Source: Nitrospirota bacterium (GTDB lineage: Bacteria > Nitrospirota > Thermodesulfovibrionia > UBA6902 > DSMQ01). Taken from it: a stretch of DNA of 64,000 nucleotides. The DNA is taken from NCBI GenBank assembly GCA_016212185.1, contig JACRGX010000061.1:4333-68332 (forward strand), written 5' to 3'. Every line of letters begins with the position of its first letter. Within the stretch, counting starts at the first letter, position 1. This document shows, one piece after another, positions 1,307 through 49,863 of this stretch. The translations under genes were made by a program, and so were the position numbers. The notes beneath the pieces are model-generated. The model was not told where the DNA came from. It saw nothing but the letters and a program-made list of their open reading frames with translations, and made no database searches.

Positions 1307-1320
1307 TTCAAAATAGTTGA

Positions 1321-1345
1321 TAGTGAATAGTATTTAGTGAATAGT
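1321..1345. repeat. 25-bp direct repeat tagtgaatagtatttagtgaa[t/c]agt, left copy flanking tRNA-Gly
   Basis: Identical except one base to 1503..1527. Both copies are followed by inverted TTCACTG/CAGTGAA heptamer runs. Confidence 0.7.
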
Positions 1346-1354
1346 AAAACTCTG

Positions 1355-1376
1355 GATTCCTGCCTCCGCAGGAATG
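1355..1376 (-). terminator. 8-bp stem / 4-nt loop hairpin (attcctgc-ctcc-gcaggaat) 40 nt downstream of tRNA-Gly on the minus strand
   Basis: A perfect inverted repeat is seen directly. It is followed on the minus strand by AGAGTTTTA. A related hairpin occurs at 4350..4375 after secA. Confidence 0.3.
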
Positions 1377-1415
1377 ACCTCACTGTTCACTGACAACTGT
1401 TCACTGTTTTTAAAG

Positions 1416-1487
<72 letters not shown>

Positions 1488-1502
1488 GTTAAAGACAGTT
1501 AT

Positions 1503-1527
1503 TAGTGAATAGTATTTAGTGAACAGT
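1503..1527. repeat. 25-bp direct repeat, right copy flanking tRNA-Gly
   Basis: tagtgaatagtatttagtgaacagt, matching 1321..1345. Confidence 0.7.
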
Positions 1528-1623
1528 TGTTAGTAAAGAACTATTCACTGTTTACTGTCGTTATAATTGTATTATTCTTTGCAGTATTATTTCAAGCACT
1601 GCATTTCTGTTATAATAAAAACC

Positions 1624-4729: not shown

Positions 4730-5142
4730 ATACTGCTGTTTGCGATACAGGCATTATTTATGCGCTTGCAGATAAAAAAGATTCCTGGCATAAACAAACT
4801 GTTGATTTTGTAAGCTCTTATAAAGGCAGATTGATTATTCCTTCTACGGTAATACCCGAGGCCTGTTATCTCTTAAACACATATTTAGGCTCATTTGCTG
4901 AAATAGAATTTATTAATTCATTAATCAACAAGGAACTCAGTATTGAACATTTCAGCGTTGTTGATTTAAATTGCTGCATTGAGTTATTAAAAAAATACGA
5001 AGATTTTAATATTGGATTTGTGGATGCCTCTATAATAGCAATTTCCGAGAGGTTGAATGTCTGTAAAATAGTGACAACTGACAGAAAACACTTTTCTGTG
5101 ATAAAGCCCAAGCATTGCGGCGCCTTTAGTTTGCTGCCGTGA
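4708..5142 (+). CDS. PIN-domain protein (VapC-like toxin)
   Basis: 144 aa. Acidic residues are spaced as in PIN nucleases (VCDTG..., ...DASIIAISE..., ...IVTTDRKHF). The gene is translationally coupled to the upstream RHH gene. Confidence 0.55.
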   Translation: MEKSYKIDTAVCDTGIIYALADKKDSWHKQTVDFVSSYKGRLIIPSTVIPEACYLLNTYLGSFAEIEFINSLINKELSIEHFSVVDLNCCIELLKKYEDFNIGFVDASIIAISERLNVCKIVTTDRKHFSVIKPKHCGAFSLLP

Positions 5143-5213: not shown

Positions 5214-6794
5214 CTACAACTTCCCCAGCGTCCTAATAAGCGCCTCGGCTTTTTTGAGCGTTTCGTAATATTCCTTTTCCGGTTCGGAATCCGCCACAAT
5301 ACCGGCGCCTGCCTGCACATAGGCGATATTGTTTTTAATCACAAAGGTCCTGATGATAATGTTTAAATCCATGGTCCTGTTAAAACCGATGTATCCGAAT
5401 GAACCTGTGTAAGGTCCTCTTGCAACCGGCTCAAGCTCGTCAATTATTTCCATGCACCTTACCTTTGGGACTCCGGTAATGGTCCCTCCGGGGAATGCAG
5501 CCCTTATTGCGTCAAAGCAGTCTCTGCCTTTTGCAAGCGTGCCGCTGACATTGGAAACTATATGAATCACATGCGAGTAGTCCTCTGTCGCCATGAATTC
5601 ATCAACAAGGACCGAGCCGTAGTCGGAAATTCTGCCGAGGTCATTTCTCTCAAGGTCAATGAGCATCAGATGCTCTGCGCGTTCTTTTTCATTAAGCAGG
5701 AGTTCTGCCCGCATTTTTTTGTCGCCTCCGGCATCTGCCCCCCTTGGTCTTGTGCCTGCAATCGGTCTTGTTTCAACAGTATTCCCCTGAATCCGCAACA
5801 GTCTTTCAGGAGATGAACTTACTATGTGATAATCTCCCATGTTCAGATAACCTGCAAACGGGGATGGATTTATCTCTTTTAATTGCAGATAAATCTGCCA
5901 TGGCGTTGTATTCCCTATGTCAGCCGAGACCCTCTGCGAGAGATTTGCCTGGAAGATGTCCCCTGCCTTGATGTATTCTTTTGCTTTTCTGACAATATTC
6001 ATATATTTTTCTTTGCCCATTTCATGGTGAATCTCAATTTTTTTAAGGCGTTCAAATTGTTTAAATTGTTCAAGCTGTTCAAACGAATTTAAACTATTTG
6101 AACTAATTTTTTTATATAGCGCATTTATCTTTTCACACGCCCTGTCGTAATAACTGCCATAATCAGATTGGGGATTAGGCTTTGGGGATTGGATATTGGA
6201 CTTTTGACTGTTTGCCCCCTTGAACGATTGAACGCTTGAACTGAGTATTTGCTCCGCTCCATGGCATGAGATGATAAAAACCTTTTTATCTTTATGGTCA
6301 AAGGCAATCACGGTATCAAAGAATAAAAAGTGTGCATCAGGGATTTTAAGGTCATCAATCACGGTCTTCGGCAGGCGCTCAAAGTACTGGACAAAATCAT
6401 AACTCAGAAGACCCACTGCACCGCCGATAAAAGGAGGAAGATTTGGAGGAGAGTCAATCTTACAGCATGTGAGCAGTTCCTTTAATGTTTTAAGAGGTAC
6501 GGTGGTGTTAAATATTCTTTGTCCCTTTGTCCCTTTGTCCCTTTGCCCCTTTGTTTCTATTTCCACAACCCCGTCTTTTACTTTAAAAATTAAAAACGGC
6601 TCAATTCCGGCAAATGAATACCGCGCAATTTTTTCAGGGCCCTTTGCGCTTTCAAGCAGGAAACTGTATGGGCTTTCCAGAGTATTGTAAATTTCGTGAG
6701 GCGGCGTAAAAGGCAGTTGAGCATAAACAGGATATATTATCCCTGTTTTAGCGGCTTCTATGAAATTATTTTTGTCAGGAAGGATATTAAGCAT
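5214..6794 (-). CDS. chorismate-binding enzyme, anthranilate synthase component I family (TrpE/PabB)
   Basis: 526 aa. The C-terminal chorismate-binding domain is GTRPRG...LLLNEKERAEHLMLIDLERNDLGRI...PGGTITGVPKVRCMEIIDELE. An LLES motif (SFLLESA) near the N-terminus favours TrpE. No glutamine amidotransferase partner is adjacent. The gene carries two in-frame repeat insertions. Confidence 0.8.
   Translation of the reverse strand: MLNILPDKNNFIEAAKTGIIYPVYAQLPFTPPHEIYNTLESPYSFLLESAKGPEKIARYSFAGIEPFLIFKVKDGVVEIETKGQRDKGTKGQRIFNTTVPLKTLKELLTCCKIDSPPNLPPFIGGAVGLLSYDFVQYFERLPKTVIDDLKIPDAHFLFFDTVIAFDHKDKKVFIISCHGAEQILSSSVQSFKGANSQKSNIQSPKPNPQSDYGSYYDRACEKINALYKKISSNSLNSFEQLEQFKQFERLKKIEIHHEMGKEKYMNIVRKAKEYIKAGDIFQANLSQRVSADIGNTTPWQIYLQLKEINPSPFAGYLNMGDYHIVSSSPERLLRIQGNTVETRPIAGTRPRGADAGGDKKMRAELLLNEKERAEHLMLIDLERNDLGRISDYGSVLVDEFMATEDYSHVIHIVSNVSGTLAKGRDCFDAIRAAFPGGTITGVPKVRCMEIIDELEPVARGPYTGSFGYIGFNRTMDLNIIIRTFVIKNNIAYVQAGAGIVADSEPEKEYYETLKKAEALIRTLGKL
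6052..6110. repeat. TTGTTCAA-family degenerate tandem block, in-frame inside trpE/pabB
   Basis: ttcaaattgtttaaattgttcaagctgttcaaacgaatttaaactatttgaactaat. On the coding strand it is translated as a low-complexity EQLEQFKQFERLKKIEI segment. Confidence 0.7.
6528..6562. repeat. octanucleotide tandem repeat (TTTGTCCC)x4, in-frame inside trpE/pabB
   Basis: tttgtccctttgtccctttgtccctttgcccctttg. It encodes ETKGQRDKGTKGQR in the minus-strand reading frame. Confidence 0.8.
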
Positions 6795-14145: not shown

Positions 14146-15597
14146 TTATTTTATTATATCCGCCGTGAAAGTATAAAGCTGCGAATTTTTCCACGCATCT
14201 TTCGGAAGCCCTGCCTTAAGCGAGACATTTTCAAGGAATGCGTTTACATCCCATTTATATTCCGTTGCGACCTGCGGAAGCAGTATGCCTGAATTTTCTC
14301 CGCTGACAATAAACAGCCCGTGAACGCCAATTTTTATATCTTTAATATTTTGTAAAGCTACAAGCGGCGAGAGCACGGTTACCTCCACTTCCATATCATT
14401 TAATTCCTCTGCTCTCACAGGCGAGAACCTGTAATCTTTTGATGCCGCCGATACCGCATTTCTGATTACAGACTGATACAGGGGCATGAAGGGCTGAATA
14501 TTGCCTATACAGCCGCGGAGATTGCCCTGCCTGTTTATAGTGACAAAGGTGGCTCCGTTTGCCATCAGCCTCGGGTCTTTTGTTTCAGCCTGCAAGACTT
14601 CGTTGTGTTTGACATAATGGAGAATTGTATTTTTGGCAAGTGAAAGGATCTCTTTTTTTTGCGCCTCTGTAAGCGTGCTCATGTACAAACCCATTGCAGA
14701 ATATCCTACGACCCGGTTTTTATCATTAGTCACATCTCCTGAGTTTGCGTATTTATAAACAACGCCGTTCGTGGCGCCTAATGCCCTTGCAACCGCCATG
14801 GTGAACATCACGGGAAATCCTCCGCACATCTCTCCCTGACCGCTTGCCATAAGCCTCTCAACCTCTTCTGTGGACAACCTGCTTATTGCGTCAATGGTTT
14901 TGCTATCCATATTGACAGCGGTTTCATAGTCATGGTAATGAGAAAGGTCAGTGCTTGCAATGATTATTGCCTTTTCATTTTTCCTGAGTATTTCTGTCAG
15001 CTTTTCCGTAAGGAATTGAAAAGACTCCCTTGTCGGCGAGCCGATAAGAATGGGGACGATGCTGAAATTTTTCAATGACTGCTGAAGAAATGGCATCTGC
15101 ACCTCAAGCGAATGTTCTTTTTCAAAGGCAGCAGGGTAAAAGGCGACATTTGCCTTTTCGTTTATCAGGGATTTTGCGATTTTTTTATTAATCGCTATTT
15201 TCCCGAGAGGCGTCTTCATACTGCCTTTGGTATATACGGACGCGCCTGTAAAGGTACTGTAATGGCTTGGGCCTATGAGAATGACTGTATCAACATCACG
15301 TTCTTTTAAATGCCTGTAAGAGTAGGCGGCGACATGCCCTGAAAACTCATACCCTGCATGCGGGGATATGAGCGCGATTAGCCTGCCGTCAACTGGTTTG
15401 TATTCAGCCGCTGAAAGAAAGCCGTCAACCATTTCCTTCAGGGTCTTGGCATCAGCCGGATAAAAGGCCCCTGCAACAGATGGTTCTTTTACCTTTCCCT
15501 CACATCCGGAAACAATGAACAGCAAACAGCAGACAGTGAACAGTAAACAGTGAACGGTGAACAGTGAACTGTTTACTGTGAACTTACTAAGTCTCAT
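14146..15597 (-). CDS. AmmeMemoRadiSam system fusion protein: Memo-like (protein B) N-terminal domain plus AMMECR1 (protein A) C-terminal domain, with lipoprotein-like signal peptide
   Basis: The Memo signature is SVAGAFYPADAKTLKEMVDGFL...LIALISPHAGYEFSGHVAAYSY. The AMMECR1 signature is RLMANGATFVTINRQGNLRGCIGNIQPFMPLYQSVIRNAVSAASKDYRFSPV. The N-terminus MRLSKFTVNSSLFTVHCLLFTVCCLLFIVSGC ends in a lipobox-like VSGC and is encoded by CAGTGAA-type heptamer repeats. Confidence 0.8.
   Translation of the reverse strand: MRLSKFTVNSSLFTVHCLLFTVCCLLFIVSGCEGKVKEPSVAGAFYPADAKTLKEMVDGFLSAAEYKPVDGRLIALISPHAGYEFSGHVAAYSYRHLKERDVDTVILIGPSHYSTFTGASVYTKGSMKTPLGKIAINKKIAKSLINEKANVAFYPAAFEKEHSLEVQMPFLQQSLKNFSIVPILIGSPTRESFQFLTEKLTEILRKNEKAIIIASTDLSHYHDYETAVNMDSKTIDAISRLSTEEVERLMASGQGEMCGGFPVMFTMAVARALGATNGVVYKYANSGDVTNDKNRVVGYSAMGLYMSTLTEAQKKEILSLAKNTILHYVKHNEVLQAETKDPRLMANGATFVTINRQGNLRGCIGNIQPFMPLYQSVIRNAVSAASKDYRFSPVRAEELNDMEVEVTVLSPLVALQNIKDIKIGVHGLFIVSGENSGILLPQVATEYKWDVNAFLENVSLKAGLPKDAWKNSQLYTFTADIIK
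15514..15585. repeat. degenerate (CAGTGAA)n / (TTCACTG)n heptanucleotide tract
   Basis: aacagcaaacagcagacagtgaacagtaaacagtgaacggtgaacagtgaactgtttactgtgaac. It forms the signal-peptide coding region of the Memo-AMMECR1 fusion. Confidence 0.8.
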
Positions 15598-15792
15598 CTG
15601 TATTCCTCCAGAACATAGCTTTCTTGGGTTCGGATTTTACAGCGGGTTTAATCTTTTTATAAAAAAGGCTGACGAGCCCGCCTAAAAGAAAGAAACCTAA
15701 AAAATCTCTCCTTGTCATGATATTAACCCCCAAACCTTTTCTGAAGCAGACATAAATTCCCTCAAAAATTTTAGAATGCAAAAATTTATTAA

Positions 15793-15953
15793 GTTTTCAA
15801 TACCCAATTCCGAAAGTCTTCGGGACCGTGGGGTTTCCTTATACTTCCCTCCACCTTGACGGGGGAGGGCGAGGGTGGGGGTGATTAAGATGCTGTTTCC
15901 ACCCTCCCCTTCATCCCCTCCCGTCAAGGGAGGGGAGACTTTAGGATACCCTG
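15793..15953. mobile_element. MITE-like GC-rich palindromic dispersed element, copy A (~160 bp)
   Basis: Near-identical to 32243..32404, and its core matches 25905..26020. It has long imperfect inverted arms cccttgacgggggagggcgagggtggggg / caccctcccc..tcccctcccgtcaaggg. It lies between the radical SAM gene and the Memo fusion gene. The track ORF 15715..16032 is just its translation. Confidence 0.8.
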
Positions 15954-15989
15954 CGATATTCGCCATTTCTCTAAAATTATTGCTATCCC

Positions 15990-17530: not shown

Positions 17531-17760
17531 AATTTTTACCTCCCAAATATCTTTTATGTTCTGATAAATTATAGCATAAATTTACAAACTTAATTATAAG
17601 AATCCTGCGAGTTGGGTTGTACGGGTTAGGTCTTGAAATATAAGGCTGTATCAGAAAGGATATTCGTTGAGAGATACAACGGATTATTTAGACGTTCATT
17701 GCTGCTGTTGTCAGTAAGATGATAATAAAAACAGAATAAAAATGATATTTCAAGATCTGA

Positions 17761-17785
17761 CCCCAATCCCCGACCCCAATCCCCA
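17761..17785. repeat. CCCCAAT-type heptamer repeat (STRR1-like)
   Basis: ccccaatccccgaccccaatcccc, in an intergenic region. Confidence 0.6.
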
Positions 17786-18119: not shown

Positions 18120-18165
18120 AACATTTTTACTTTACTTGTTCATACTAATTACTATCCACTGTTTA

Positions 18166-19377
18166 CTATTCACTGCCTTTATAACACCTATTGCATCTGA
18201 TGCACTCTGATATGTGCGGAGACGGTTTATTTCCCATCGGGCAGTCATGCCTGCTCGGGTAGCCGTCAGCCTTTCTTGAAAATAGCCCTGTAAATGCCGC
18301 AACAGGGCACAGATACCTGCACCAGAAGCGCTCTACTTTCAGATTTGCAATAAGCGACACGGCAACCAGCGTCCATGTAAAAACATTTCCGCTGAATGAA
18401 AACAGGGTTACATATGTTTCATAATTTCCGTAATCAATTCTTTTGCTGATAAAAACAATAGCTATAATCACCCCAAGCAGGACATATTTTAATCTGCGCC
18501 ATTTATCATCAGTTTCTTTCGGGACCTCCCATTTTTTAAACGGAAGCCTGCCTGCAAATTCGCACAATGCGCCAAACGGGCACAGCCATCCGCAGTAGAA
18601 TCTTCCCGCAATAATTATTGACAGTATTGTGCTTCCGGCTGTTACATACCAGATGATTGCAGAAGAGTGTCTGAGAAGCAGGAGGTTAAAAACATGCAGA
18701 ATTGAAAAAGGACTTGAAAGATATAAACCAATAATGATTATTCCTGCAAGCAAAGTGATGTCGCGCGACTTTAAAAATTTCTTTGAGCGCCTTGCCGCAA
18801 AATAGAAAGTCAGCGACGCTAAAAACAATAACAAATACCATATCCAGTTAATGTCTGTCGTCATGACCGCTTCTTCTGCGCCGGCAGTTAATCCGTAGAC
18901 GTTTAATGCGATTATTCTTGAGGAGTTTTTTATGGACTTTGCCAGCGCTGTAACGCTTACAGTGGCCCTGCTTATGCCGTCAATGTCTTTGTCAATTTCA
19001 AACGGGTCGCTGATGCTTTTGCCTATGAACCGGTTAAGATATTGCGGGCTTTCCATGTAATGAACGTAATTTTTTGTCTCGCTGTGTCCGATAATTTTTA
19101 TCCCTGTAATTTTCCCTTCCCTATTTAATGAAATTAGAGTTTTTATCGGGCCTGCATATCCTCTGATAGAGGGCATAATGTCATAAGTATTAAATGCTGC
19201 AATGCCTTCATCTGAAAAATAATGAGGGGGAGCGCCGCCTTTTTCGGCAAATGTGATGTCAGGCGCAATATCTTTGAGAAATTTCCTTTCATCAATGAAT
19301 TCCTCAGGATGCAGGAGGTATCCTAAAATGAGTGAGACGATTGCTGTGAGAAGCAGAATTATTCTAATTTTTTTCAT
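18166..19377 (-). CDS. membrane protein with periplasmic FMN-binding domain and NapH/NosR-like CX3CP motifs
   Basis: 403 aa. An N-terminal TM anchor is followed by an FMN_bind-like region (DGISRATVSVTALAKSI) and multiple TM helices with CGWLCPFG and CRYLCPV motifs. Confidence 0.55.
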   Translation of the reverse strand: MKKIRIILLLTAIVSLILGYLLHPEEFIDERKFLKDIAPDITFAEKGGAPPHYFSDEGIAAFNTYDIMPSIRGYAGPIKTLISLNREGKITGIKIIGHSETKNYVHYMESPQYLNRFIGKSISDPFEIDKDIDGISRATVSVTALAKSIKNSSRIIALNVYGLTAGAEEAVMTTDINWIWYLLLFLASLTFYFAARRSKKFLKSRDITLLAGIIIIGLYLSSPFSILHVFNLLLLRHSSAIIWYVTAGSTILSIIIAGRFYCGWLCPFGALCEFAGRLPFKKWEVPKETDDKWRRLKYVLLGVIIAIVFISKRIDYGNYETYVTLFSFSGNVFTWTLVAVSLIANLKVERFWCRYLCPVAAFTGLFSRKADGYPSRHDCPMGNKPSPHISECIRCNRCYKGSE

Positions 19378-25904: not shown

Positions 25905-26020
25905 TACTAAACCCTCCCCCTTGACGGGGGAGGGTAAGGGTGGGGGTGATAAGATGTTATTTTCACCCTCCCCTACATCCCCTCCCGTCAAGGGAGGGGA
26001 GATTTCGGGATGCCCCGCGG
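25905..26020. mobile_element. MITE-like GC-rich palindromic element, truncated copy B
   Basis: ccctcccccttgacgggggagggtaagggtgggggtgataagatgttattttcaccctcccctacatcccctcccgtcaagggagggga matches the core of copies A and C. It lies between cysK and the cysM-like gene. Confidence 0.75.
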
Positions 26021-26972: not shown

Positions 26973-26985
26973 AATATTGTTCAAA

Positions 26986-27064
26986 CTGTTTAACATTGTT
27001 TAAAAGGGGTTAAAACGATTTTAAACGGCGTTGAACGGTTTAAACTGCTTGAACTATTTGAATT
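26986..27064. repeat. TTGTTCAA-family degenerate tandem block
   Basis: attgttcaaactgtttaacattgtttaaaagg...gttgaacggtttaaactgcttgaactatttgaa. Confidence 0.7.
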
Positions 27065-27505
27065 ATGTTAAACAAATCTATCATTGAACAAATTTTTAAC
27101 CATGCCATTGAGACATACCCTAACGAGTGCTGCGGAATTGTGACAGGAGACAGGGACAATCAGACAGTCCACCTTTGCGAAAATATCCAGAACAGGCTTC
27201 ATGCAGAAGACCCTGTGAGACATCCGAGGGATGCGCGCACCGCATATCTTATTGACAGAAAAGAGTTTGAACGAATTGTGTCCTCTGCAAAGGAACAGGG
27301 CAAAGAAGTTATTGCCTTTTATCATTCTCATCCTGAACATGAATCGTATTTTTCTGAAGACGATGCCGCTGCCCAGACTGTCTTTGGAGAGCCTGAATTC
27401 CCCGGCGCCCTGCATGTGGTAATCTCCGTGAAAAACAAAAAAATTCATGATATGAAGTGCTTTAAATGGGACGGACAGGGTTTTGCTGAAAAGGAACTCA
27501 ATTAA
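27065..27505 (+). CDS. JAMM/MPN+ metalloprotease, Mec+-like (CysO-cysteine peptidase family)
   Basis: 146 aa. JAMM motif E..CG...HSHPEHESYFSEDD, with an upstream ECCGIV. Confidence 0.7.
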   Translation: MLNKSIIEQIFNHAIETYPNECCGIVTGDRDNQTVHLCENIQNRLHAEDPVRHPRDARTAYLIDRKEFERIVSSAKEQGKEVIAFYHSHPEHESYFSEDDAAAQTVFGEPEFPGALHVVISVKNKKIHDMKCFKWDGQGFAEKELN

Positions 27506-27771: not shown

Positions 27772-28410
27772 TTATTCTGCAGGATTTGATTGCATGTCTT
27801 TCATTTTTTTTCTGAACCATCTGAGGATATCGTCATAAGACGGAGGTGTTACAAGGAATATCTCTATATCAGCCGGAAACTGCAGTTTTACACGGTCTTC
27901 ATCACGCATGATGAGCATTCCTGCCTCGCCGTCTGCAAGGTTGGTATTTATAACGCCCAAAATATGTGTCAGCCGTTTGTTTGAAAATTCCGTATAAAAC
28001 TCAAAGATTTTTGAAAAAACCTCCTGAGTCCGCACTACATTCAGGCAATTTGCCCAGTCCAGAAACGGCCCGAAGACCTCTTTGCTCTCAACCGGAAAAA
28101 GCTCAGCGCCTTCATCAACCTTTTTCTTAATAAGTCTGGCGGTCTGTTCATTAATCTCAGATAATGTTTTAAGGGCGTCATCCCCCTGAACATGTACGCT
28201 TTCGCAAAATATCTTTTTAATTTTTCCTGCCGCCTCAAGTTTTTCAGCCTGCGCCGTTGCCTCATCCCAGTATTTATTTACAAGCTCTTTATAATCCTCC
28301 GGTGCGTCTTTAACTATATATATGTTCGGCACACAATACAGTTTTCGCTTTTCTTTAAAGTTTTCAACAGCCGGTTTTTCAACCTGTCCAAGTTCAGCCA
28401 TAAAATTCAT
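27772..28410 (-). CDS. hypothetical protein
   Basis: 212 aa intact ORF with good coding periodicity. I recognise no family. Confidence 0.5.
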   Translation of the reverse strand: MNFMAELGQVEKPAVENFKEKRKLYCVPNIYIVKDAPEDYKELVNKYWDEATAQAEKLEAAGKIKKIFCESVHVQGDDALKTLSEINEQTARLIKKKVDEGAELFPVESKEVFGPFLDWANCLNVVRTQEVFSKIFEFYTEFSNKRLTHILGVINTNLADGEAGMLIMRDEDRVKLQFPADIEIFLVTPPSYDDILRWFRKKMKDMQSNPAE

Positions 28411-28437
28411 CCTCCTTTTTTGTATAATAATTCTAAC

Positions 28438-29214
28438 ATGAACGCCCTTGCTATTTTAACATCAGTGCCTTTTGAATCAAATATAATTCTCTCATGCCTG
28501 AAAAATATCCGTAAATTCAGGATGGCAGGAAAGGTTGTTTCTAAGGGCAGAATTGCAGGGCATGATATCTTACTTATGAACACAGGCATCGGGAAGGTTA
28601 ATGCCGCACACGCTGTAACTGCCCTTATTGAGCATTATCCGCTGAAGTGCGTTATCAATTCAGGCGCGGGCGGAGCTTATCCGCACTCAGTGCTTGCGGT
28701 TGGAGATATTGCAGTTGCGTCAAAGGAAATTTACGGGGATGAAGGAGTAATGTCTCCAGGCGGCTGGAAGGATTTGAGAGCAATCGGGATTCCGGTTGCG
28801 CAAGTCGGGAAGAAAAAATATTTCAATGAATTTCCATTGGACAAAAAATTTCTTAAAATAACTATAAATATTTTACGCATTACGCATCACGCATCACGTC
28901 CCTCCCCACTGCCCCCTCTCCCGATGTGTCGGGAAGGGGGGTGGGGGAGGGTGAAGTTAGGCAATTTCCTCACGCTGTCGTCTGTGACAGGCACGCATAA
29001 AAGAGCCATTGAGCTTGAAAAACGGTTTAATGCTATTTGCGAAAACATGGAAGGCGCTGCCATTGCCCATGTCTGCGCAATGTACAAGATTCCCATGCTT
29101 GAAATCAGGGGGATAAGCAATATTGCCGGCGTGCATGATAAGAGAAAGTGGAACCTAAAACTCGCCTCTGAAAATTGTCAGGATACAGTGCTGGAGATAA
29201 TTGCCGGGCTTTAG
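28438..29214 (+). CDS. mqnB: futalosine hydrolase / MTA-SAH nucleosidase family (MqnB-like)
   Basis: Nucleoside phosphorylase-I fold: ALAILTSVPFE..., GIGKVNAAHAVTALIE, VINSGAGGAY, EGAAIAHVC. The gene carries a ~90-bp in-frame GC-rich palindromic insertion. The track ORF start at 28192 is an upstream artefact. Confidence 0.65.
   Translation: MNALAILTSVPFESNIILSCLKNIRKFRMAGKVVSKGRIAGHDILLMNTGIGKVNAAHAVTALIEHYPLKCVINSGAGGAYPHSVLAVGDIAVASKEIYGDEGVMSPGGWKDLRAIGIPVAQVGKKKYFNEFPLDKKFLKITINILRITHHASRPSPLPPLPMCREGGWGRVKLGNFLTLSSVTGTHKRAIELEKRFNAICENMEGAAIAHVCAMYKIPMLEIRGISNIAGVHDKRKWNLKLASENCQDTVLEIIAGL
28872..28955. repeat. in-frame insertion: (CGCATCA) heptamers plus a GC-rich palindrome inside mqnB
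   Basis: cgcattacgcatcacgcatcacg is followed by tccctccccactgccccctctcccga-tgtg-tcgggaaggggggtgggggaggg. It is translated as RITHHASRPSPLPPLPMCREGGWGRVKLG. Confidence 0.75.
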
Positions 29215-30587: not shown

Positions 30588-31534
30588 TTTTTCTTCTTTT
30601 TTATAGGCTGGGGTTCGTCAATTTTTTTCTGTGCAGTTTTTGCCTCTTTTGAGTCGGGGAATTTCTCAATGAGCTTCTCAAGCGTGGTCCTTCCAATTTT
30701 ATCGTCATTAATGGCATAAAATGCAAGGCCCTCCTTAAGAAGCGCCTCCGGCACTTTATTGCTTTCAGGATTTTTTTCCAGAAGCTCTTCGTATGCAAGA
30801 ATGGCATCCCGGTATTCCTTGCTTCTGTAATAACTTTCCGCAATCCAGAAACGGGCATTGTCTGAGTATTCGTTTTCAGGGTAATCTTTGAGCATCGCTG
30901 TGAATTTTTCCCGCGCCTCTTTTATCCTGCCCGAGGAATATATTTCGTAGGCATCTGCATATGCATCTTTAACGGGTATCTTTGCTGGTTTTTCGCTTTT
31001 TACAGGTTCGGCCGGTATCTCCTCCTGTTTTAAATTTTCTGATTTTCTGGCTTCCTCCTTCTGTTTTTTGAGGGCAATGTTTTCAGATTCCAATGCGGAG
31101 ATTCTTTTTTTCAGGTCGCTCAGTGATAGTTCCAGTTCTTTTACCTGTATGAGAAGCGACTCTTTGCCGGTTGTCATATCTTTCGCAGTCTTTTCCGAAG
31201 AATATTTTGCCTCTTCAAAGCGGCCCATAAGCACCTGCACCTCGGTTGAAAGCGTCTGCATCTTCAGCATAAGGTCTGACAGCGCCTTGCCCGCAGCTTT
31301 TTGCTCATCTGCCAATTCCTGCACTTTGCCTAAAAGCTTTTCATCGCTTATAGGGATCTGGGTTTCTATTGCCTGGGATTTTTGTTTTATCTTTACAACT
31401 TCATTCCGGAGTTCATTAAGATTGTACTGGATCTTGTCCACATCCTGAGATGTGGCGCAGCCGGCGATAAAAATAAAAGCAAAAAGCAGTGAACAGTGAA
31501 CAGTGAACAGTGAACAGTATTTTTTATTTCTCAT
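30584..31534 (-). CDS. ybgF: Tol-Pal system lipoprotein YbgF/CpoB-like (coiled coil plus TPR)
   Basis: The lipoprotein signal is MRNKKYCSLFTVHCSLLFAFIFIAGC. A long coiled coil is followed by C-terminal TPRs (AYADAYEIYSSGRIKEAREKFTAMLKDYPENEYSDNARFWIAESYY). It closes the tolQRAB-pal operon. Confidence 0.7.
   Translation of the reverse strand: MRNKKYCSLFTVHCSLLFAFIFIAGCATSQDVDKIQYNLNELRNEVVKIKQKSQAIETQIPISDEKLLGKVQELADEQKAAGKALSDLMLKMQTLSTEVQVLMGRFEEAKYSSEKTAKDMTTGKESLLIQVKELELSLSDLKKRISALESENIALKKQKEEARKSENLKQEEIPAEPVKSEKPAKIPVKDAYADAYEIYSSGRIKEAREKFTAMLKDYPENEYSDNARFWIAESYYRSKEYRDAILAYEELLEKNPESNKVPEALLKEGLAFYAINDDKIGRTTLEKLIEKFPDSKEAKTAQKKIDEPQPIKKKKN
31487..31518. repeat. (CAGTGAA)x4 heptanucleotide tandem repeat inside the ybgF signal-peptide codons
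   Basis: cagtgaacagtgaacagtgaacagtgaacagt encodes LFTVHCSLFTVHC on the minus strand. Confidence 0.85.
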
Positions 31535-31565: not shown

Positions 31566-31590
31566 TGCCCATCACGCATTACGCATCACG
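31566..31590. repeat. (CGCATCA)-type heptamer repeat
   Basis: catcacgcattacgcatcacgg lies in the pal-ybgF intergenic region. The same unit is inserted in mqnB at 28872. Confidence 0.6.
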
Positions 31591-31597: not shown

Positions 31598-32209
31598 TCA
31601 TTTCCCGACAGCAAAATTCGCCCTCCTGTTTTTCTGGAAGCAGTCTTCTGTTTGTTCTGCGCATATAGGCTTTTCTTCGCCATAGCTTATCGTCTTTATT
31701 TTTTCCGATGCAATTCCGCTTGCGGTAAGATAGTCCCTTGCTGCATTGGCCCTTTTTTCTCCAAGTGCAAGGTTGTATTCGTTGGTTCCCCTTTCGTCGC
31801 AGTGGCCTTCTATTATTATTTTGACCCCTTTATTATTCTTCAGCCATGTCGCGGCAGAGTCCAGCGCAGGTCTTGCGTCTTCTTTTATGTCATATTTGTC
31901 AAAGTCAAAAAGAATATCTTTGAAAACAAATTCTGTTTTTACCTGTGCGGCAGACTCTTTTGACTGTATGGCGGATTCCTTAGGCTTTTGCCCCTTTCCT
32001 GACAGTTCTTCTTCAGCAATTTCCCTTTGAATCTCTGCGGGTTTTTGCAAAATTTTTTCCTCTGAAACCTCTTTCAGTCTTTCTTTCTTTTCCTCTGAGG
32101 CCTTAACAGGCTCTTCAGTCGGTTGAACCTCATATTTTTTCGCACAGCCTATTACTGTAAGCATCAGCAGGAATACAAAAAAAATTTTAATGTTTTGTTC
32201 CCATTGCAT
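31598..32209 (-). CDS. pal: peptidoglycan-associated lipoprotein Pal (OmpA-like domain)
   Basis: The lipoprotein signal is MQWEQNIKIFFVFLLMLTVIGC. The OmpA_C domain reads FDFDKYDIKEDARPALD...IIIEGHCDERGTNEYNLALGEKRANAARDYL. The track ORF extends N-terminally into MITE copy C; the start at 32209 is preferred. Confidence 0.85.
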   Translation of the reverse strand: MQWEQNIKIFFVFLLMLTVIGCAKKYEVQPTEEPVKASEEKKERLKEVSEEKILQKPAEIQREIAEEELSGKGQKPKESAIQSKESAAQVKTEFVFKDILFDFDKYDIKEDARPALDSAATWLKNNKGVKIIIEGHCDERGTNEYNLALGEKRANAARDYLTASGIASEKIKTISYGEEKPICAEQTEDCFQKNRRANFAVGK

Positions 32210-32242
32210 ATGCCGCTCCTTTCTGCTTTTAACTCGTATTAA

Positions 32243-32404
32243 ATTTTCAATACCCCATCCCGAAAGCCTTCGGGACTGTGGGGTGTCCTTATACTTCCCT
32301 CCCCCTTGACGGGGGAGGGCGAGGGTGGGGGTGATTAAAATGCTGTTTCCACCCTCCCCTTCATCCCCTCCCGTCAAGGGAGGGGAGACTTTAGGATACC
32401 CCGC
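32243..32404. mobile_element. MITE-like GC-rich palindromic dispersed element, copy C
   Basis: Near-identical to copy A over ~160 bp. It is inserted between the tolB stop and the pal start. Confidence 0.8.
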
Positions 32405-32424
32405 CGGCTCTGCGGCGGGGAGGT

Positions 32425-33684
32425 TCATTTAAGATACGGCGACCATTTGGGAGCCATTGCTTTAACTCCATTGGATGTAATTTTTCTTTCTCCAGTTTCG
32501 CCGGCACGCATTATCCACACCCCCTTTGTTCCATCCCTGTCCGAATCAAATGCTATGAACATGCCGTCAGGGGAAAATGACGGTGATTCATTATTTCCCT
32601 TCTCAGTAAGTTGACTGATTTCAAGGGTACTTAATTTTATCACAAAAATCTGATTATTCATATTCTTCCTTCCGACATAGGCAATTTCTTTTCCATCCGG
32701 AGACCATACAGGCGAGGTATTGTAATTGCCTTCAAACGTAAGCCTTCTTACGCTGCTGCCGTCTGCATTCATTATATAAATCTGGGGGCTGCCCCCCCTG
32801 TCGGATACAAAGGCAATCTTTGAGCCGTCCGGCGAGAAAACCGGCGATACATCAATGCCGAAGGACTCAGTGAGTTTTTTGGAGCCGCTTCCATCCATAT
32901 TCATAACATATATCTCAGGGCTGCCGTCTTTTGATGAAGAAAATGCAATGATATTATCAGGTGAGAAGCCTCCGACGAGATTGAGCCCTTTGGATGAAAA
33001 AAGCACTGTCTCATTGTAATTGTTAAGGTTTATGATGTAAATGCTCCATTCCTTATCCCTTTCCGAAGAATACGCCAGATACTCACTGCTATGCGACCAG
33101 TTATGGCTGAATGTAAGCCCCTTTACAACTATTTTCTGGTCGCTGTAGCCGTCAAAGTCCATCAGGTGAAGCTCTTTTTTCCCTGAAGCGTCAGTGATGT
33201 ATGCAATCCTGGTTCTGAAGACGCCATCCTGCCCGGTAATTACCTTATAGATGTTGTTGGAAATGCTGTGGGACAGCGTGCGGATAATATTTTCCCCTGC
33301 CTCATACTTTTTCCTGAGTATTTCCCTGTTTTCAATAAGGTCAAAGACTGACACATTAGCGGTGAGCACATTGTCTGCGACATTCACATCAATATTAACT
33401 GTAATCTCAGCGCCCTTAACTCCTGGCTCTAACGGGTTAAAGATTCCGGTGAAATCAAGGTCGTTTTTGACAATCTCTGTAAGTTTTTCCGCCTCTTTTG
33501 AACCGGAGAAAGCGAATGATACCGGAAGTTTTCTTAATGCCGGCGATGTTATATCAATGTAGATCTTGGCATCAGCAGAACACAGAACACAGAACACAGA
33601 ACACAGAATACAGATAAAAGATAAAAATAACACTTTGTTAGCACGTCTGGATTCTGAGATCTGCAATCTGTGCTCTATTTTCAT
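32425..33684 (-). CDS. tolB: Tol-Pal system beta-propeller protein TolB
   Basis: 419 aa. A signal peptide is followed by a TolB N-domain and repeated WSPDG/FSPDG propeller blades. Confidence 0.9.
   Translation of the reverse strand: MKIEHRLQISESRRANKVLFLSFICILCSVFCVLCSADAKIYIDITSPALRKLPVSFAFSGSKEAEKLTEIVKNDLDFTGIFNPLEPGVKGAEITVNIDVNVADNVLTANVSVFDLIENREILRKKYEAGENIIRTLSHSISNNIYKVITGQDGVFRTRIAYITDASGKKELHLMDFDGYSDQKIVVKGLTFSHNWSHSSEYLAYSSERDKEWSIYIINLNNYNETVLFSSKGLNLVGGFSPDNIIAFSSSKDGSPEIYVMNMDGSGSKKLTESFGIDVSPVFSPDGSKIAFVSDRGGSPQIYIMNADGSSVRRLTFEGNYNTSPVWSPDGKEIAYVGRKNMNNQIFVIKLSTLEISQLTEKGNNESPSFSPDGMFIAFDSDRDGTKGVWIMRAGETGERKITSNGVKAMAPKWSPYLK
33575..33612. repeat. (GTGTTCT)n / (CAGAACA)n heptanucleotide tandem repeat within the tolB signal-peptide codons
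   Basis: cagaacacagaacacagaacacagaacacagaatacag encodes ILCSVFCVLCS. Confidence 0.85.
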
Positions 33685-37498: not shown

Positions 37499-37918
37499 AT
37501 GTTAGAAATTAACAAGTGGTTTTTTGTCCAGCTGATTAATTTTCTGCTTCTTATCGTGCTTTTAAATCAAATTCTCTTCAAACCCCTTCTGCGCATGTTC
37601 AAGGAACGGCAGGACCGGATGAAAAACGCCCTTGACAGCGCAAAGACAATGGGGCTGGAAAAAGATGATTTAATAAACAAGATAAACGCAAGGCTCCTTG
37701 AAGTGAGACATCAGGCAAGGACCATTCACGAGGAATATAAGACTGATGGTTTAAATGTACAGAAGGGGTTTGTTGACACAGCCGGAAAAGAGGCATCTGA
37801 GATGACTGCAAGGGCATTGAAGGAACTTGGCGCCGAGGTTGAAAATTCAAGAAAGGCGCTGAAGTCAGAGGTAAATAAATTTGCCGATGAGATTACAAGA
37901 AAGCTGATAACGGTATGA
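37499..37918 (+). CDS. atpF2: F0F1 ATP synthase subunit b' (AtpF2)
   Basis: 139 aa. A single N-terminal TM helix precedes a long charged helix. It is the first of two b-type genes heading the atp cluster. Confidence 0.7.
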   Translation: MLEINKWFFVQLINFLLLIVLLNQILFKPLLRMFKERQDRMKNALDSAKTMGLEKDDLINKINARLLEVRHQARTIHEEYKTDGLNVQKGFVDTAGKEASEMTARALKELGAEVENSRKALKSEVNKFADEITRKLITV

Positions 37919-38526
37919 AGAGAAAAGTTAAAAGGTATAAGTTAATAATTAATAGTTTTTTACTGTTCACTGTTCACTGTTCACTGTTCACTGTTTCTTC
38001 GGTGTTTGCCTCTGAAGGGGCTGAGCATGCAGCTTCTTTTAAAGACATGCTCTGGCCTGTTCTAAATTTTGCGATTCTTGTTGCCATCCTTGTTAAATTT
38101 GGGCGTAAGCCTATCAGTGAATTCCTCAAAAAGCGCACTGAGCTTATTGAGAAATCCCTGAAAGAGGCTGAGGAGGCGAAGGAACTTGCAAAAAAGGCTT
38201 TTTCCGAAGTGCAGGCGAGGCTTTTAGGCATGGACAAAGAAATAAATAATATACTTGAGTCGGCAAAAAAGGCAGGGGAAAGGGAGAAAGAGGCGCTTAT
38301 TGCGCAGGGGGAAAGCCTGAAGAACAAGATAATTGAACAGGCAAAGGCAAACATAGAATATGAACTTCAAAAGGCAAAAAAGGCGATAAAATCAGAGGCG
38401 GCTCTTATGGCGCTTGAACTTGCCGAAAAACAGATAAAAGAAAAACTTGATGCAAAGGGGCATGAAAGGCTTACAGAGGAATATATCCGGAAAATTGCCC
38501 ATACTGCCGGAGAGGTTAAGAATTGA
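37915..38526 (+). CDS. atpF: F0F1 ATP synthase subunit b
   Basis: 203 aa. A TM helix precedes a long coiled-coil helix. The N-terminal LLFTVHCSLFTVSSVFA is encoded by a (TTCACTG)n tract at 37963..37996. Confidence 0.75.
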   Translation: MKRKVKRYKLIINSFLLFTVHCSLFTVSSVFASEGAEHAASFKDMLWPVLNFAILVAILVKFGRKPISEFLKKRTELIEKSLKEAEEAKELAKKAFSEVQARLLGMDKEINNILESAKKAGEREKEALIAQGESLKNKIIEQAKANIEYELQKAKKAIKSEAALMALELAEKQIKEKLDAKGHERLTEEYIRKIAHTAGEVKN

Positions 38527-39059: not shown

Positions 39060-39154
39060 AAACAGTTAAGAGTTTAGAGTTAAGAGTTATCCCGAAGCGT
39101 CGGGATAACTTTTAATTTTCAATTTTTAACTTTAATTTTATCGGGGGTGATTTA

Positions 39155-40672: not shown

Positions 40673-40728
40673 CAACAGTGAACAGTGAACAATAAAAAAA
40701 TAAATATAAACAACTTCCGGATTAAGGC

Positions 40729-45101: not shown

Positions 45102-45171
45102 CACTGCTTTAAGATAGCTGTTATTATTTCAAACTCTACACTGTTAACTGTCAACTGTTCACTGTTTTTAA

Positions 45172-45247
<76 letters not shown>

Positions 45248-47304: not shown

Positions 47305-49863
47305 ATGTTCATGAATATCGCACACTTTCAAAAACCAAGCAGGTACGCTGGCAGTGAGGTCAATATTATCCGTAAGGGTCAGGAGGCGCGGGTGAAGGCG
47401 GCTCTATGCTTTCCGGACACTTATGAAATCGGGATGTCTCATCTGGGGCTTAAGGTTTTATATTCAATAATAAACAATATCCCATATGCCTCTGCGGAAA
47501 GGGTCTTTGCGCCGTGGATTGATTATGAAAAATATCTGAGGCAGAAGGGGGAACTGCTCTCATCGCTTGAAAGCAGGAGGCCTTTAAAGGATTTTGATAT
47601 TGTCGGTTTCAGCCTTCAATATGAACTCTCATATACAAATGTGCTAAATATGCTGGACCTTGGCGGAATTCCTGTCAGGGCGGAAGCCAGAGGCGATGAA
47701 TATCCGCTTATAATTGCAGGCGGTCCGTGTGCGGCGAACCCTATGCCTCTTGCGCCGTTCATAGATGCGTTTGTCATAGGAGACGGGGAAGAGGCTGTAA
47801 AGGAAATTATAGATGTTTATGAAAGGGTCAGGGGACAGAGACAAAGAAAGGAATTCAGAATTCAGAATTCAGAATTCAGAAGTAAGGATGAATTATTAAA
47901 GGCGCTTTCGGAATTGGAGGGTGTTTATGTTCCGGCAGTGCACAAACCGGACAGGCGGAGAATAAAGAGAAGGATTGTTGAAAATCTTGATGAGGCGCAT
48001 TTCCCTGAGGCGACTGTAGTGCCTTTTAACTCTATTGTGCATGACAGGATTGCCATAGAAGTGGCAAGGGGCTGCGCTGAAGGCTGCCGTTTTTGCCAGG
48101 CGGGAATAATTTACAGACCTGTAAGAGAGAGGAGTCCGGAAAAAATCCTATCGCTGGCCCATAAATTAATCGCAAACACAGGGTATGAAGAGGTCTCTTT
48201 TACATCGCTGAGCACAGGGGATTACAGCTGTCTTTTGCCTTTGATAAAGACATTTAACAGGGTATTTTTAAATCAGCGCATTGCTATATCACTGCCGTCA
48301 TTAAGGGTAGGCTCTGTCAGCAGGGATGTGCTTGATGAAATAAAAAGCGTCAGAAAAACAGGCTTTACAATAGCGCCTGAGGCAGGAACAAAAAGACTCA
48401 GAAATGTAATCAACAAAAATCTGGAAGATACGGATTATGATGCGGCTCTTGAGAGGCTTTTCAGCGCCGGATGGAAAAATATAAAGTTGTACTTCATGAT
48501 AGGGCTTCCCACTGAGACAGAGCATGATATAGAAGGGATAATGAACATGGTAAGGCACGCTTCAAGGAAAGGCAGGGAGTTAACAAAGCGCAGTGTAAAT
48601 ATCAATGTCGGCATTTCCGCCTTTGTGCCTAAGCCGCATACTCCGTTTCAATGGCTTGGACAGATGCCTTTTAAAGAATTAAGAAAGAGGCAGGATTATC
48701 TCAGGAATACATTGCAGAGGGGCGGATTTAATTTCAAGGGACAGCATGTTGAAGTAAGCCTTCTTGAGGCGGCGCTGTCAAGGGGAGATTCGGATATGGC
48801 ATTGCTTGTTGAGACCGCATGGAAGCTCGGCTGTACCTTTGACGGGTGGTCTGAGACATTTGATTTTCAGAAGTGGCTTAAGGCGGCTGAAATGACAGGC
48901 ATTGATATAATGAGCCGGGCTGAAAGAGAGTATGAACTTGATGATAAGCTGCCGTGGGATATTATTGATACTGATGTTACAAAAGAATTTCTGATGAATG
49001 AATTTCAAAATGCGTTTAAGGAGCATACGACTGAAAACTGCAGGCAGGTCTGTCACAACTGCGGGCTGGGATGCGGAGAAAAGATTCAGGGGTTAGGAGT
49101 CAGGAGTCAGGAGTCAGAATATAACGTACGGCAGTCAGACATTATGCCTTCCTGCCGTACGGACACACATCACGCATTACCAATCCGGATAAGAATGGTT
49201 TTTTCAAAGACCGGAGCGCTGCGTTATCTCTCACACCTTGAAGTGGTCAGGGCGCTTCTCAGGGCAATGAAAAGGGCGGGAGTGCCGCTAACTTATACGA
49301 ATGGTTTTCATCCGCTTCCAAAGGTATCATTCGGACCTGCGCTTTCTGTCGGCATTGAAGGGCTCAATGAATATTTTGACGCAGAGGTTTATGCCCCTGT
49401 GAATACGGGTGAAATTATTTCAAAGGTGAATGCTGTGCTTCCGGAAGGGCTTAGGATTGTACGCGCTTTGGCGCTTGGAGTCAGGGTAAAAATAAATGAT
49501 GATTTTATTTTTAAATACGAATATGAAATAATATCTGACAAGACGCTTTTGAACAGGGACTTGCTCCTGAACTTTATGCAGAGCTCTCAGCATCTGATAA
49601 CAAGAGAAGGAAGGACAATTGATATAAGGCAGATGGTTGAAGGGGCGGACATGGGTGATGGAATTTTAAGGCTTGCTATGAAGGATGCAGGCGGGACAAA
49701 AGTAAGGCTTTATGAAATACTTGAAGCTGTTTTCCGGTTGTCAAAAGACGAGTTGTATGGGCTTGAGATAAAAAGGACCGGTATTCATGCCGAAAGACAA
49801 AAACAATCAGATAAGCCTTCAATGACCGAAAGAGAGATGGAGAAAGCATGGCTAATGATATAG
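47305..49863 (+). CDS. radical SAM protein (TIGR03960-like) fused to a DUF2344 (TIGR03936-like) domain
   Basis: 852 aa. The B12-like N-domain precedes a radical SAM CxxxCxxC-type site (GCAEGCRFCQAG), and the C-terminal half is DUF2344-like. It lies immediately upstream of the RNase E/G-family gene, a known conserved neighbourhood. The linker carries two in-frame heptamer tracts. Confidence 0.8.
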   Translation: MFMNIAHFQKPSRYAGSEVNIIRKGQEARVKAALCFPDTYEIGMSHLGLKVLYSIINNIPYASAERVFAPWIDYEKYLRQKGELLSSLESRRPLKDFDIVGFSLQYELSYTNVLNMLDLGGIPVRAEARGDEYPLIIAGGPCAANPMPLAPFIDAFVIGDGEEAVKEIIDVYERVRGQRQRKEFRIQNSEFRSKDELLKALSELEGVYVPAVHKPDRRRIKRRIVENLDEAHFPEATVVPFNSIVHDRIAIEVARGCAEGCRFCQAGIIYRPVRERSPEKILSLAHKLIANTGYEEVSFTSLSTGDYSCLLPLIKTFNRVFLNQRIAISLPSLRVGSVSRDVLDEIKSVRKTGFTIAPEAGTKRLRNVINKNLEDTDYDAALERLFSAGWKNIKLYFMIGLPTETEHDIEGIMNMVRHASRKGRELTKRSVNINVGISAFVPKPHTPFQWLGQMPFKELRKRQDYLRNTLQRGGFNFKGQHVEVSLLEAALSRGDSDMALLVETAWKLGCTFDGWSETFDFQKWLKAAEMTGIDIMSRAEREYELDDKLPWDIIDTDVTKEFLMNEFQNAFKEHTTENCRQVCHNCGLGCGEKIQGLGVRSQESEYNVRQSDIMPSCRTDTHHALPIRIRMVFSKTGALRYLSHLEVVRALLRAMKRAGVPLTYTNGFHPLPKVSFGPALSVGIEGLNEYFDAEVYAPVNTGEIISKVNAVLPEGLRIVRALALGVRVKINDDFIFKYEYEIISDKTLLNRDLLLNFMQSSQHLITREGRTIDIRQMVEGADMGDGILRLAMKDAGGTKVRLYEILEAVFRLSKDELYGLEIKRTGIHAERQKQSDKPSMTEREMEKAWLMI
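47851..47882. repeat. (GAATTCA)x4 heptanucleotide tandem repeat, in-frame
   Basis: gaattcagaattcagaattcagaattcagaag encodes EFRIQNSEFRS. Confidence 0.85.
49095..49117. repeat. (AGGAGTC)x3 heptanucleotide tandem repeat, in-frame
   Basis: aggagtcaggagtcaggagtcag encodes GVRSQESE. Confidence 0.8.

Follow-up and report, generated by a model that had tools for sequence, protein, structure and literature searches.

The window, by which we mean the whole 64-kb stretch analysed here, comes from a metagenome-assembled genome (MAG) of an uncultured Nitrospirota bacterium (Thermodesulfovibrionia). Our subject is a class of short tandem arrays with a period of 7 nucleotides (nt), several of which lie at the 5' ends of genes for predicted exported proteins. 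Pfam identifies the four genes concerned as encoding a Memo+AMMECR1 fusion, a TPR/YbgF protein, TolB (PD40 and TolB_N) and AtpF (ATP-synt_B), and the NCBI annotation of the source MAG has the same starts as ours for three of the four (Memo-AMMECR1, YbgF and AtpF). Arrays were detected with Tandem Repeats Finder and by direct reading of the sequence, and every tract reported by a first-pass annotation of this DNA was indeed found at its place. The arrays at the 5' ends of the four genes are listed below; the parts of signal peptides named there (n-region, hydrophobic h-region) are predictions.

15511..15583, minus strand: Memo-AMMECR1 array of 11 degenerate NGTTCAC units, nearly the whole lipoprotein signal peptide (MRLSKFTVNSSLFTVHCLLFTVCCLLFIVSGC)
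31487..31518, minus strand: ybgF array, perfect (CAGTGAA)4.6, in the sense direction (TTCACTG)4.6, lipoprotein signal peptide of YbgF/CpoB (MRNKKYCSLFTVHCSLLFAFIFIAGC)
33576..33614, minus strand: tolB array (CAGAACA)5.6, in the sense direction (TGTTCTG)5.6, h-region of TolB (ICILCSVFCVLCS) and 3' arm of an mRNA hairpin
33646..33675, minus strand: degenerate (NNNCAGA)4 array of tolB, n-region EHRLQISESR and 5' arm of the hairpin, complementary to 33576-33614
37925..37954, plus strand: degenerate (AAGTTAA)n array of atpF, Lys-rich n-region of the N-terminal extension of AtpF
37962..37995, plus strand: perfect (ACTGTTC)4.9 array of atpF, encoding LLFTVHCSLFTV in the signal-like extension of AtpF; its unit is the CAGTGAA unit of ybgF on the opposite strand

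These tracts are not chance, since a two-unit probe (CAGTGAACAGTGAA) with at most one mismatch finds 14 matches in the window, where 0.01 would be expected. Perfect tandem arrays of at least three copies number five at period 7 in the window and none at periods 5, 6 and 9-14; period 7 alone stands out. The relatives used for comparison are likewise Nitrospirota/Thermodesulfovibrionia MAGs, and we refer to them as L001 and so on. According to Tandem Repeats Finder, period-7 arrays occur at 20.3 per 100 kb in the window, at 14.3 in the relatives (209 kb) and at 3.0 in distant loci (1.9 Mb), where period 7 is no commoner than period 6 or 9. CAGTGAA-type units account for 15 of the 55 arrays found in 334 kb and are spread over 9 genomes; AAGTTAA/AAGAGTT-type units account for 8 and CACAGAA/CACAGAG-type units for 7, which brings the three families to 30 of the 55. 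Further heptamers in the window are CCCCAAT, ACGCATC, AGTTAAG, GAATTCA and AGGAGTC. The idea that CAGTGAA is a dispersed repeat is thus upheld, with the addition that it is a preferred unit family. On the other hand, the picture of two special heptamers recruited by four genes has to be given up in favour of a clade-wide period-7 class with many units. A protein-database search with (FTVHCSL)6, the peptide of the ybgF-type unit, returned only 20 short spurious open reading frames (ORFs).

The arrays are distributed very unevenly. In proteins with a hydrophobic N-terminus, arrays make up 7.8% of the first 45 codons; the figure is 2.8% for intergenic DNA and 0.33% for the rest of the coding DNA, so that their density in N-terminal signal regions is about 24-fold that of other coding DNA. 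Of six genes whose signals are of the cleavable or lipoprotein type, four have arrays and two, pal and the lipoprotein gene starting at 56915, do not; none of the membrane-anchor proteins has one.

It had been claimed that the tracts at the four genes are in-frame 5' coding sequence, and this is confirmed by starts that lie upstream of the tracts and are fixed by conserved start-stop overlaps (ATGA, GTGA or TTGA) and by conserved motifs. The tolB start overlaps the stop of an upstream TonB/TolA-like gene as ATGA, and every relative has an ATGA, GTGA or TTGA overlap there. The atpF start is in an ATGA overlap with atpF', and every relative has an extension that ends in AFA, continues as xEGAEH and precedes the helix WLWPVINF. 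The Memo-AMMECR1 start forms an ATGA overlap with a conserved upstream ORF (43 aa in the window). Arrays whose units contain TAA have a single substitution exactly at the would-be in-frame stop: tolB of L001 reads AGT TTA for AGT TAA and TCT TTA for TCT TAA, and atpF of the window reads AGG TAT. In our opinion, this patching of stops is direct evidence that ribosomes read these tracts. As can be seen by inspection, whichever of the three frames is used, (TTCACTG)n reads TTC ACT GTT CAC TGT TCA CTG, that is FTVHCSL; the complementary strand is interrupted by TGA in each frame, hence coding is possible in one orientation only. The TGTTCTG unit of tolB encodes CSVFCVL.

The start of ybgF is peculiar in several relatives, which lack an ATG in the stretch from the pal stop to the signal peptide (L081 4040-4100, L082 11860-11920, L002 4600-4760, L003 3990-4110). 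The sole in-frame start there is a TTG within the last pal codons (..ATT TTG..), from which L002 would have to read through a terminator-like hairpin. Start calling, orthologue clustering and signal-peptide predictors are all liable to be confused by array-built signal regions, and annotations should be used with caution.

The first-pass annotation regarded the tracts as the hydrophobic cores of signal peptides. They are in frame and do form part or all of the h-regions, with the qualification that in ybgF the array precedes the core LLFAFIFIAGC. The predicted signals end in ..FIVSGC (Memo), ..FIAGC (YbgF), ..CSADA before KIYIDI (TolB) and ..VFA before SEGAEH (AtpF), with hydropathy of 2.1-3.2, and the lipobox or AxA-type motif is kept in orthologues together with the mature N-terminus; in YbgF, for instance, the lipobox FIAGC is followed by a conserved ATSQDV. 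Almost all of 120 Memo-AMMECR1 orthologues (59-74% identity) have a lipobox ..GC directly before a conserved VKEPxVAGxFYP, and lipoprotein export would therefore seem to be a family trait: the protein is a predicted lipoprotein in nearly all of these 120 Nitrospirota orthologues.

An exported component of AmmeMemoRadiSam, here the fused B/A protein (window 14146-15597, minus strand), is unexpected. The upstream ORF mentioned above (15587-15718, minus strand) always precedes Memo-AMMECR1 as a conserved ORF of 43-48 aa; its stop overlaps the Memo ATG also in L162, L164, L166 and L167, and its product has a twin-arginine-like motif (MTRRDFLGFFLLGG). The signal-like extension of AtpF before a normal membrane helix is likewise clade-wide and is present with or without heptamer arrays (window 37915-38050; L002, L004, L005, L008).

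Comparison with relatives indicates that evolution is far more rapid in the signal peptides than in the mature proteins behind them. The three closest TolB proteins have the mature N-terminus KIYIDITSPALRKLPVS in common, while their signal peptides are non-homologous and built of different arrays; ybgF and atpF orthologues use other units, and in more distant genomes they have ordinary signal peptides. The Memo genes of cluster 4 are the clearest case. Their mature parts are 93-96% identical at the nucleotide level, and they begin with three unalignable heptamer-periodic signal peptides made of AAGTTYC+TTACTGN, of TTCACTG and of AGCTCTC units. Orthologues with ordinary signal peptides, which would speak against the reading of the first-pass annotation, occur only among the more distant relatives, and there only in some. 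The data do not favour the recruitment of one pre-existing repeat, as originally proposed. Orthologous sites carry different units, and one array (described below) grew from a proto-repeat of 2.3 units; both point to generation and turnover in situ.

As to array length, when genomes and metagenomes were scanned with TolB, no strain-level copy of the window came up (82-85% identity at best), hence the comparison of copy numbers at tolB, ybgF and atpF is limited to species-level relatives. For Memo we could use a cluster of proteins at least 90% identical, with lengths of 483 or 476 aa. In the DNA alignment, one clean 21-nt indel within the Memo array separates the window and L165, with 11 units, from L164 and L166, with 8. 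A second indel of the same size is found among arrays that lie within genes for cytoplasmic enzymes, in linkers of a TrpE/PabB-like protein and of a TIGR03960 radical SAM protein:

6166..6199, minus strand: CCCAATC-type array, in frame (NIQSPKPNPQS) in the TrpE/PabB-like protein
6517-6554, minus strand: octamer array (CTTTGTCC)4.8, in frame in the N-terminal domain of the same TrpE/PabB-like protein (ORF 5214-6794; TKGQRDKGTKGQR)
47851..47881, plus strand: perfect (GAATTCA)4.4, inserted in frame (KEFRIQNSEFRSK) into a linker of the TIGR03960 radical SAM protein
49086..49117, plus strand: (AGTCAGG)n array of the radical SAM protein, three units (21 nt, IQGLGVR) longer than in L169

At 49086-49117 the window has 5.3 units, and L169, whose protein is 90.6% identical, has 2.3. 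The extra 21 nt are ATTCAGG GGTTAGG AGTCAGG, after removal of which 21 of 24 nt are identical, and the seven residues are absent from all other radical SAM orthologues, so that the difference is an expansion in the lineage of the window. The expectation that only changes of three units keep the frame is borne out by these two 21-nt indels between close relatives. Furthermore, perfect period-7 runs (336 kb) are either 16-23 nt or 31-35 nt long, with none of 24-30 nt and none above 35 nt; the 12 runs of the longer class all lie in coding DNA, and intergenic arrays, with 2.6-5.0 copies, are of intermediate size. Most simply, this would mean that the lengths open to a coding array are spaced by three units, at about 2, 5, 8 and 11. 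We had considered a mechanism of one-step 'quantised birth' for the long runs, but since all 12 are coding and intergenic sizes are intermediate, the limit to three-unit steps largely replaces it.

At the other radical SAM site (47851-47881), the window and L169 both have four units, homogenised to GAATTCA in the window and mixed in L169. In many TIGR03960 orthologues (P0175-P0211, 55-68% identity) this linker is heptapeptide-periodic (KFKIQNSKFKVK and KVRSQKSEVRSK, i.e. (RAATTCA)n); it varies in length and is absent in some. The site would thus have hosted arrays for a long time or repeatedly. The period-8 array at 6517-6554 likewise needs three units (24 nt) to stay in frame.

Outside genes, heptamer copies had been reported around tRNA-Gly and at three further places, and they are present, although degenerate or short: at 1312-1557 on both sides of tRNA-Gly and at 18149-18175, 40674-40691 and 45140-45166. 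The full set follows, with the significance of folds given as z against dinucleotide shuffles and with no strand where none applies.

1312..1408: inverted TAGTGAA-type/TTCACTG-type pair around a GC-rich stem, just 3' of tRNA-Gly; z -3.6 on the minus and -7.2 on the plus strand
1495..1557: inverted TAGTGAA-type/TTCACTG-type pair just 5' of tRNA-Gly; z -6.0 and -5.1
17759..17785: intergenic CCCCAAT-type array
18149..18175: degenerate TTCACTG-type array at the 3' end of gene 18166-19377; fold not significant
31570..31590: CATCACG array of three units in the pal-ybgF spacer
39064..39139, plus strand: inverted (AGTTAAG)n/(TTTTAAN)n around a GC stem in the atpH-atpA spacer, with many G-U pairs, terminator-like
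40674..40691, plus strand: (AACAGTG)2.6 directly after the atpA stop codon
41612..41668, plus strand: inverted GGGATTT-type/AATCCCC-type arrays in the atpG-atpD spacer; z -2.0
45140..45166, plus strand: (ACTGTTN)3.9 array immediately 5' of tRNA-Ala, probably in the tRNA leader

Read as mRNA, the atpH-atpA element reaches -35.9 kcal/mol (z -6.7), whereas its antisense strand reaches -20.5, the difference being due to G-U pairs. A translated counterpart exists in tolB, whose 5' coding region is an inverted pair of (NNNCAGA)4 and (TCTGTGT)5 with -39.3 kcal/mol (z -5.3), and the same design recurs in tolB of L009 (-53 kcal/mol, z -7.9) and ybgF of L003 (z -5.3). In all three the purine-rich arm encodes the polar n-region and the pyrimidine-rich arm the h-region. 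The ybgF, atpF and Memo tracts of the window and the tolB tracts of L081 and L001 fold no better than shuffles, which rules out a universal function of a 5' hairpin, and a search of Rfam gave no family match to the arrays.

In both tRNA genes an (ACTGTTN)n array followed by TTT(TT)AA stands directly upstream of the mature 5' end (45098-45172; 1488-1540). At tRNA-Ala a near-consensus promoter-like site, TTGACA-18-TATTAT (45098-45127), would put the array into the leader of the precursor. The ACGCATC/CATCACG unit of the pal-ybgF spacer is also found at 28875-28898 inside ORF 28192-29214 of the window, in L001 at 6271-6296, and in L169 at about 4798-4830 inside the radical SAM gene, whose counterpart in the window is without it.

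The window has repeats of other kinds too. Arrays periodic at 9-10 nt and based on GTTCAA/TTGAAC lie at 6050-6109, 26976-27066, 51332-51422, 55382-55496 and 59709-59753, often as runs of GTTCAA followed by runs of TTGAAC (inverted), in gene spacers; one copy is within the TrpE-like ORF. A dispersed non-coding element of about 110-170 nt has three copies (15787-15954, 32237-32404 and 25912-26019; identities 94.6% and 88%), one of which sits between the radical SAM and Memo genes. If read through, it gives a pseudo-peptide '...PPLTGGDEGEGGNSILITPTLALPRQGGGKYK', and it artificially extends the pal ORF (31598-32428), the real start of which is probably at 32209.

How should all this be explained? 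In our opinion, the arrays are best regarded as a slippage-driven heptamer class, similar to the STRRs (repetitive sequences made of short tandem repeats) of cyanobacteria and filtered by selection, which survives in coding DNA mainly in signal peptides, changes there in 21-nt steps and so gives rise to hypervariable signal peptides; we would put the probability of this at about 0.7. Replication slippage, or the re-expansion of short proto-repeats, would locally create arrays and turn them over, with preferred unit families (CAGTGAA, AAGTTAA/AAGAGTT and CACAGAA/CACAGAG). Outside genes they would last as single tracts or as inverted pairs, the latter forming long RNA hairpins in operon spacers and beside tRNAs. 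Within genes an array could persist if its coding strand is free of stops in every frame or the stop is removed by a point change, if the encoded heptapeptide repeat is tolerated, and if its length changes in multiples of three units (21 nt). Signal peptides would be favoured because no other coding segment is as permissive and because they are situated at the gene boundary. T-rich units (TTCACTG, TGTTCTG), which give the same semi-hydrophobic peptide in every frame, could serve as h-region, and A-rich units (AAGTTAA, AAATTCA, NNNCAGA) would supply n-regions rich in Lys, Gln, Ser and Arg. Where an inverted pair is translated, its purine-rich arm would become the n-region and the complementary pyrimidine-rich arm the h-region. 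The outcome would be working signal peptides whose rebuilding far outpaces the divergence of the mature proteins.

Several points weigh against this explanation. Simple slippage hardly adds three units to a two-unit proto-repeat in one step, and it does not account for the reappearance of the same units at unrelated loci, some of them non-coding. Gene callers are biased, and frameshifted alleles drop out of comparisons based on proteins. The tolB hairpin is not kept in the two closest relatives, L081 and L001. Export and cleavage of the array-bearing proteins are deduced from motifs and their conservation, and our census covers about 0.33 Mb of fragmentary MAG and metagenome DNA around a few loci. 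The two shortfalls of slippage suggest that a sequence-specific process may be involved. It is then tempting, although we consider it unlikely, to go further and to assume a sequence-biased repeat-making process, kin to the STRRs of cyanobacteria, that continuously creates signal peptides in Thermodesulfovibrionia. Inverted arrays at gene boundaries would then yield a charged n-region together with a hydrophobic h-region, since complementary codons have opposite hydropathy. Were this so, export signals would be created, lengthened and replaced on the timescale of strain divergence, which could account for the change of normally cytoplasmic families, Memo-AMMECR1 for one, into lipoproteins in this phylum, and frequent out-of-frame intermediates would cause some low-level on/off heterogeneity as a by-product.

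One may ask whether the arrays function first of all as nucleic acid, so that this role is what retains them in 5' coding regions and their translation is secondary. Inverted pairs would then be regulatory or stabilising RNA hairpins, and single pyrimidine-rich arrays would leave the beginning of the message free of structure or would themselves be bound by a protein. Indeed, the intergenic and tolB hairpins reach z of -5 to -8, with G-U pairs strengthening them on the transcribed strand, the atpH-atpA element resembles a terminator, and single arrays are less structured than shuffles (z +1.4 to +2.6). Preferred units are also common to coding and non-coding DNA and directly adjoin two tRNAs, and STRR hairpins have been proposed to act on transcript stability (PMC2670836). 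However, units and structures are not conserved at orthologous sites, the 5' hairpin of tolB is absent from the two closest relatives and from ybgF, atpF and Memo of the window, and Rfam does not know them; rapid replacement speaks against a conserved cis-function at any single site, and we find this view rather improbable. Replacement is also what one would expect if ready-made signal-peptide cassettes, for example an AAGTTAA-type followed by a TTCACTG-type array, were traded among loci or genomes through recombination or some mobile process, which would explain both the sudden change of whole signals and the recurrence of units. The window atpF and the L001 tolB do have the same composite layout of (AAGTTAA)n, a T-run and (TTCACTG)n, whole signal peptides are swapped between genes that are 93-96% identical, and one unit family dominates across genomes. 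Yet we saw neither flanks in common nor target duplications nor mobility genes associated with the arrays, one array goes back to the local three-unit expansion of a proto-repeat, and the radical SAM site with equal length and differing units in two genomes fits homogenisation in place. We would call such an exchange highly improbable.

We are hardly more inclined to believe in contingency loci similar to opa, in which gain or loss of a single heptamer would shift the frame and switch exported proteins on and off at high frequency; phase-variable switching of the non-essential genes had been kept as an option by the first-pass annotation. The length of the unit is not a multiple of three, the tracts are in the 5' coding region as in opa (PMC3960869), and array length differs between close relatives. 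Since changes of three units are seen, changes of one and two units must also arise, and more often; they would frameshift the gene and must be purged, so that rare OFF variants may still exist in populations. But all 21 array-bearing 5' ends of tolB, ybgF and atpF, which were located via the mature domains, are in frame from the conserved start, with no out-of-frame allele among them. The ybgF tract has four units plus CTG in the window, in L081 (91% aa identity) and in L001 (89%), and what differs in L001 is point substitutions, with no indels of units; a tract that is equal in three genomes and decays by substitution does not look like a switch. In addition, the tracts are short (4-5 perfect units), their carriers include, besides ybgF and Memo-AMMECR1, the housekeeping genes atpF and tolB as well as cytoplasmic enzymes, and the hosts are free-living anaerobes of groundwater and sediment, with no host-adapted pathogens among them. 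Finally, the tracts might be non-coding because of mis-called starts, or be artefacts of assembly. The exact product of our tolB ORF is not in the protein collection, NCBI may use another start, and there is an in-frame GTG at codon 18 of tolB. That GTG is still upstream of the array, however, and starts downstream of the arrays are ruled out by the conserved start-stop overlaps and the Lys/Arg residues conserved after the start, by the mature N-termini and lipoboxes that directly follow the arrays, and by the patched stops. The 31-35-nt class does not result from assembly collapse either, because such arrays are shorter than reads and typical k-mers and many independent assemblies have every coding array in frame. 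This possibility is already contradicted, and we attach next to no weight to it.

If our preferred explanation, a heptamer class driven by slippage and filtered by selection, is correct, then the arrays are a concrete route to rapid birth and turnover of export signals. They are a nucleotide-level case of signal peptides made from non-triplet repeats, with 21-nt steps and wholesale replacement of units while the mature proteins stay nearly identical. They also offer a natural test of how small the sequence requirements of a bacterial signal peptide are.

Among known systems, the STRR sequences of heterocystous cyanobacteria come closest; they are dispersed arrays of 7-bp units that form hairpins between genes, e.g. 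hupS-hupL, with a proposed effect on transcript stability (PMC2670836). Our arrays share with them the short tandem 7-bp structure, the many dispersed copies, the few preferred unit families, and the intergenic and operon positions with hairpin-forming pairs (flanks of tRNA-Gly, atpH-atpA, atpG-atpD; z -2 to -7). Unlike STRRs, which were defined in heterocystous cyanobacteria, they belong to Nitrospirota/Thermodesulfovibrionia, many of them are translated, mainly as signal peptides, and in coding DNA their length states are three units apart. The units of Mazel et al. 1990 are said to include CCCCA(A/G)T for STRR1 and CAACAGT for STRR3. The CCCCAAT arrays at 17759, 6166 and 41612 look similar to the former, and AACAGTG, our main family, differs from the latter at one position of seven. 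We found no report in the literature of heptamer arrays of the STRR type in Nitrospirota; their extension to an unrelated phylum provides a second, independent system in which the origin of the 7-bp periodicity and of the unit preference can be studied. The repetitive extragenic palindromic (REP) elements and bacterial interspersed mosaic elements (BIMEs) of enterobacteria are also short, dispersed elements of operon spacers that form stable hairpins in mRNA, comparable with the atpH-atpA and atpG-atpD elements described here. REP elements, however, are imperfect palindromes of fixed sequence, and are neither tandem heptamer arrays nor translated.

The opa genes of Neisseria have CTCTT repeats in the DNA for the hydrophobic part of the leader peptide and undergo phase variation by slipped-strand mispairing (PMC3960869). 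As in opa, our repeat unit is not a multiple of three and lies within signal-peptide DNA, so that gain or loss of a unit would frameshift the gene. In contrast to opa, which switches at about 1e-3 per generation and has many alleles out of frame, we see in-frame differences of three units only; and whereas loci of the opa type are dispensable and usually concern the surface or interaction with a host, the tracts here are short and are found in housekeeping genes of free-living bacteria. A different parallel is offered by human proteins, in which 61.7% of order-promoting short tandem repeats are in signal peptides (PMC9581044). The signal peptide is evidently a place where hydrophobic repeat tracts, mainly poly-Leu in eukaryotes, are tolerated and accumulate, and in this respect our arrays are alike. 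They differ in that the eukaryotic repeats are trinucleotide repeats encoding homopolymers, while here units of 7 nt encode seven-residue repeats, identical in whichever frame they are read, and the arrays provide n-regions as well and are linked to a genome-wide class of non-coding repeats.

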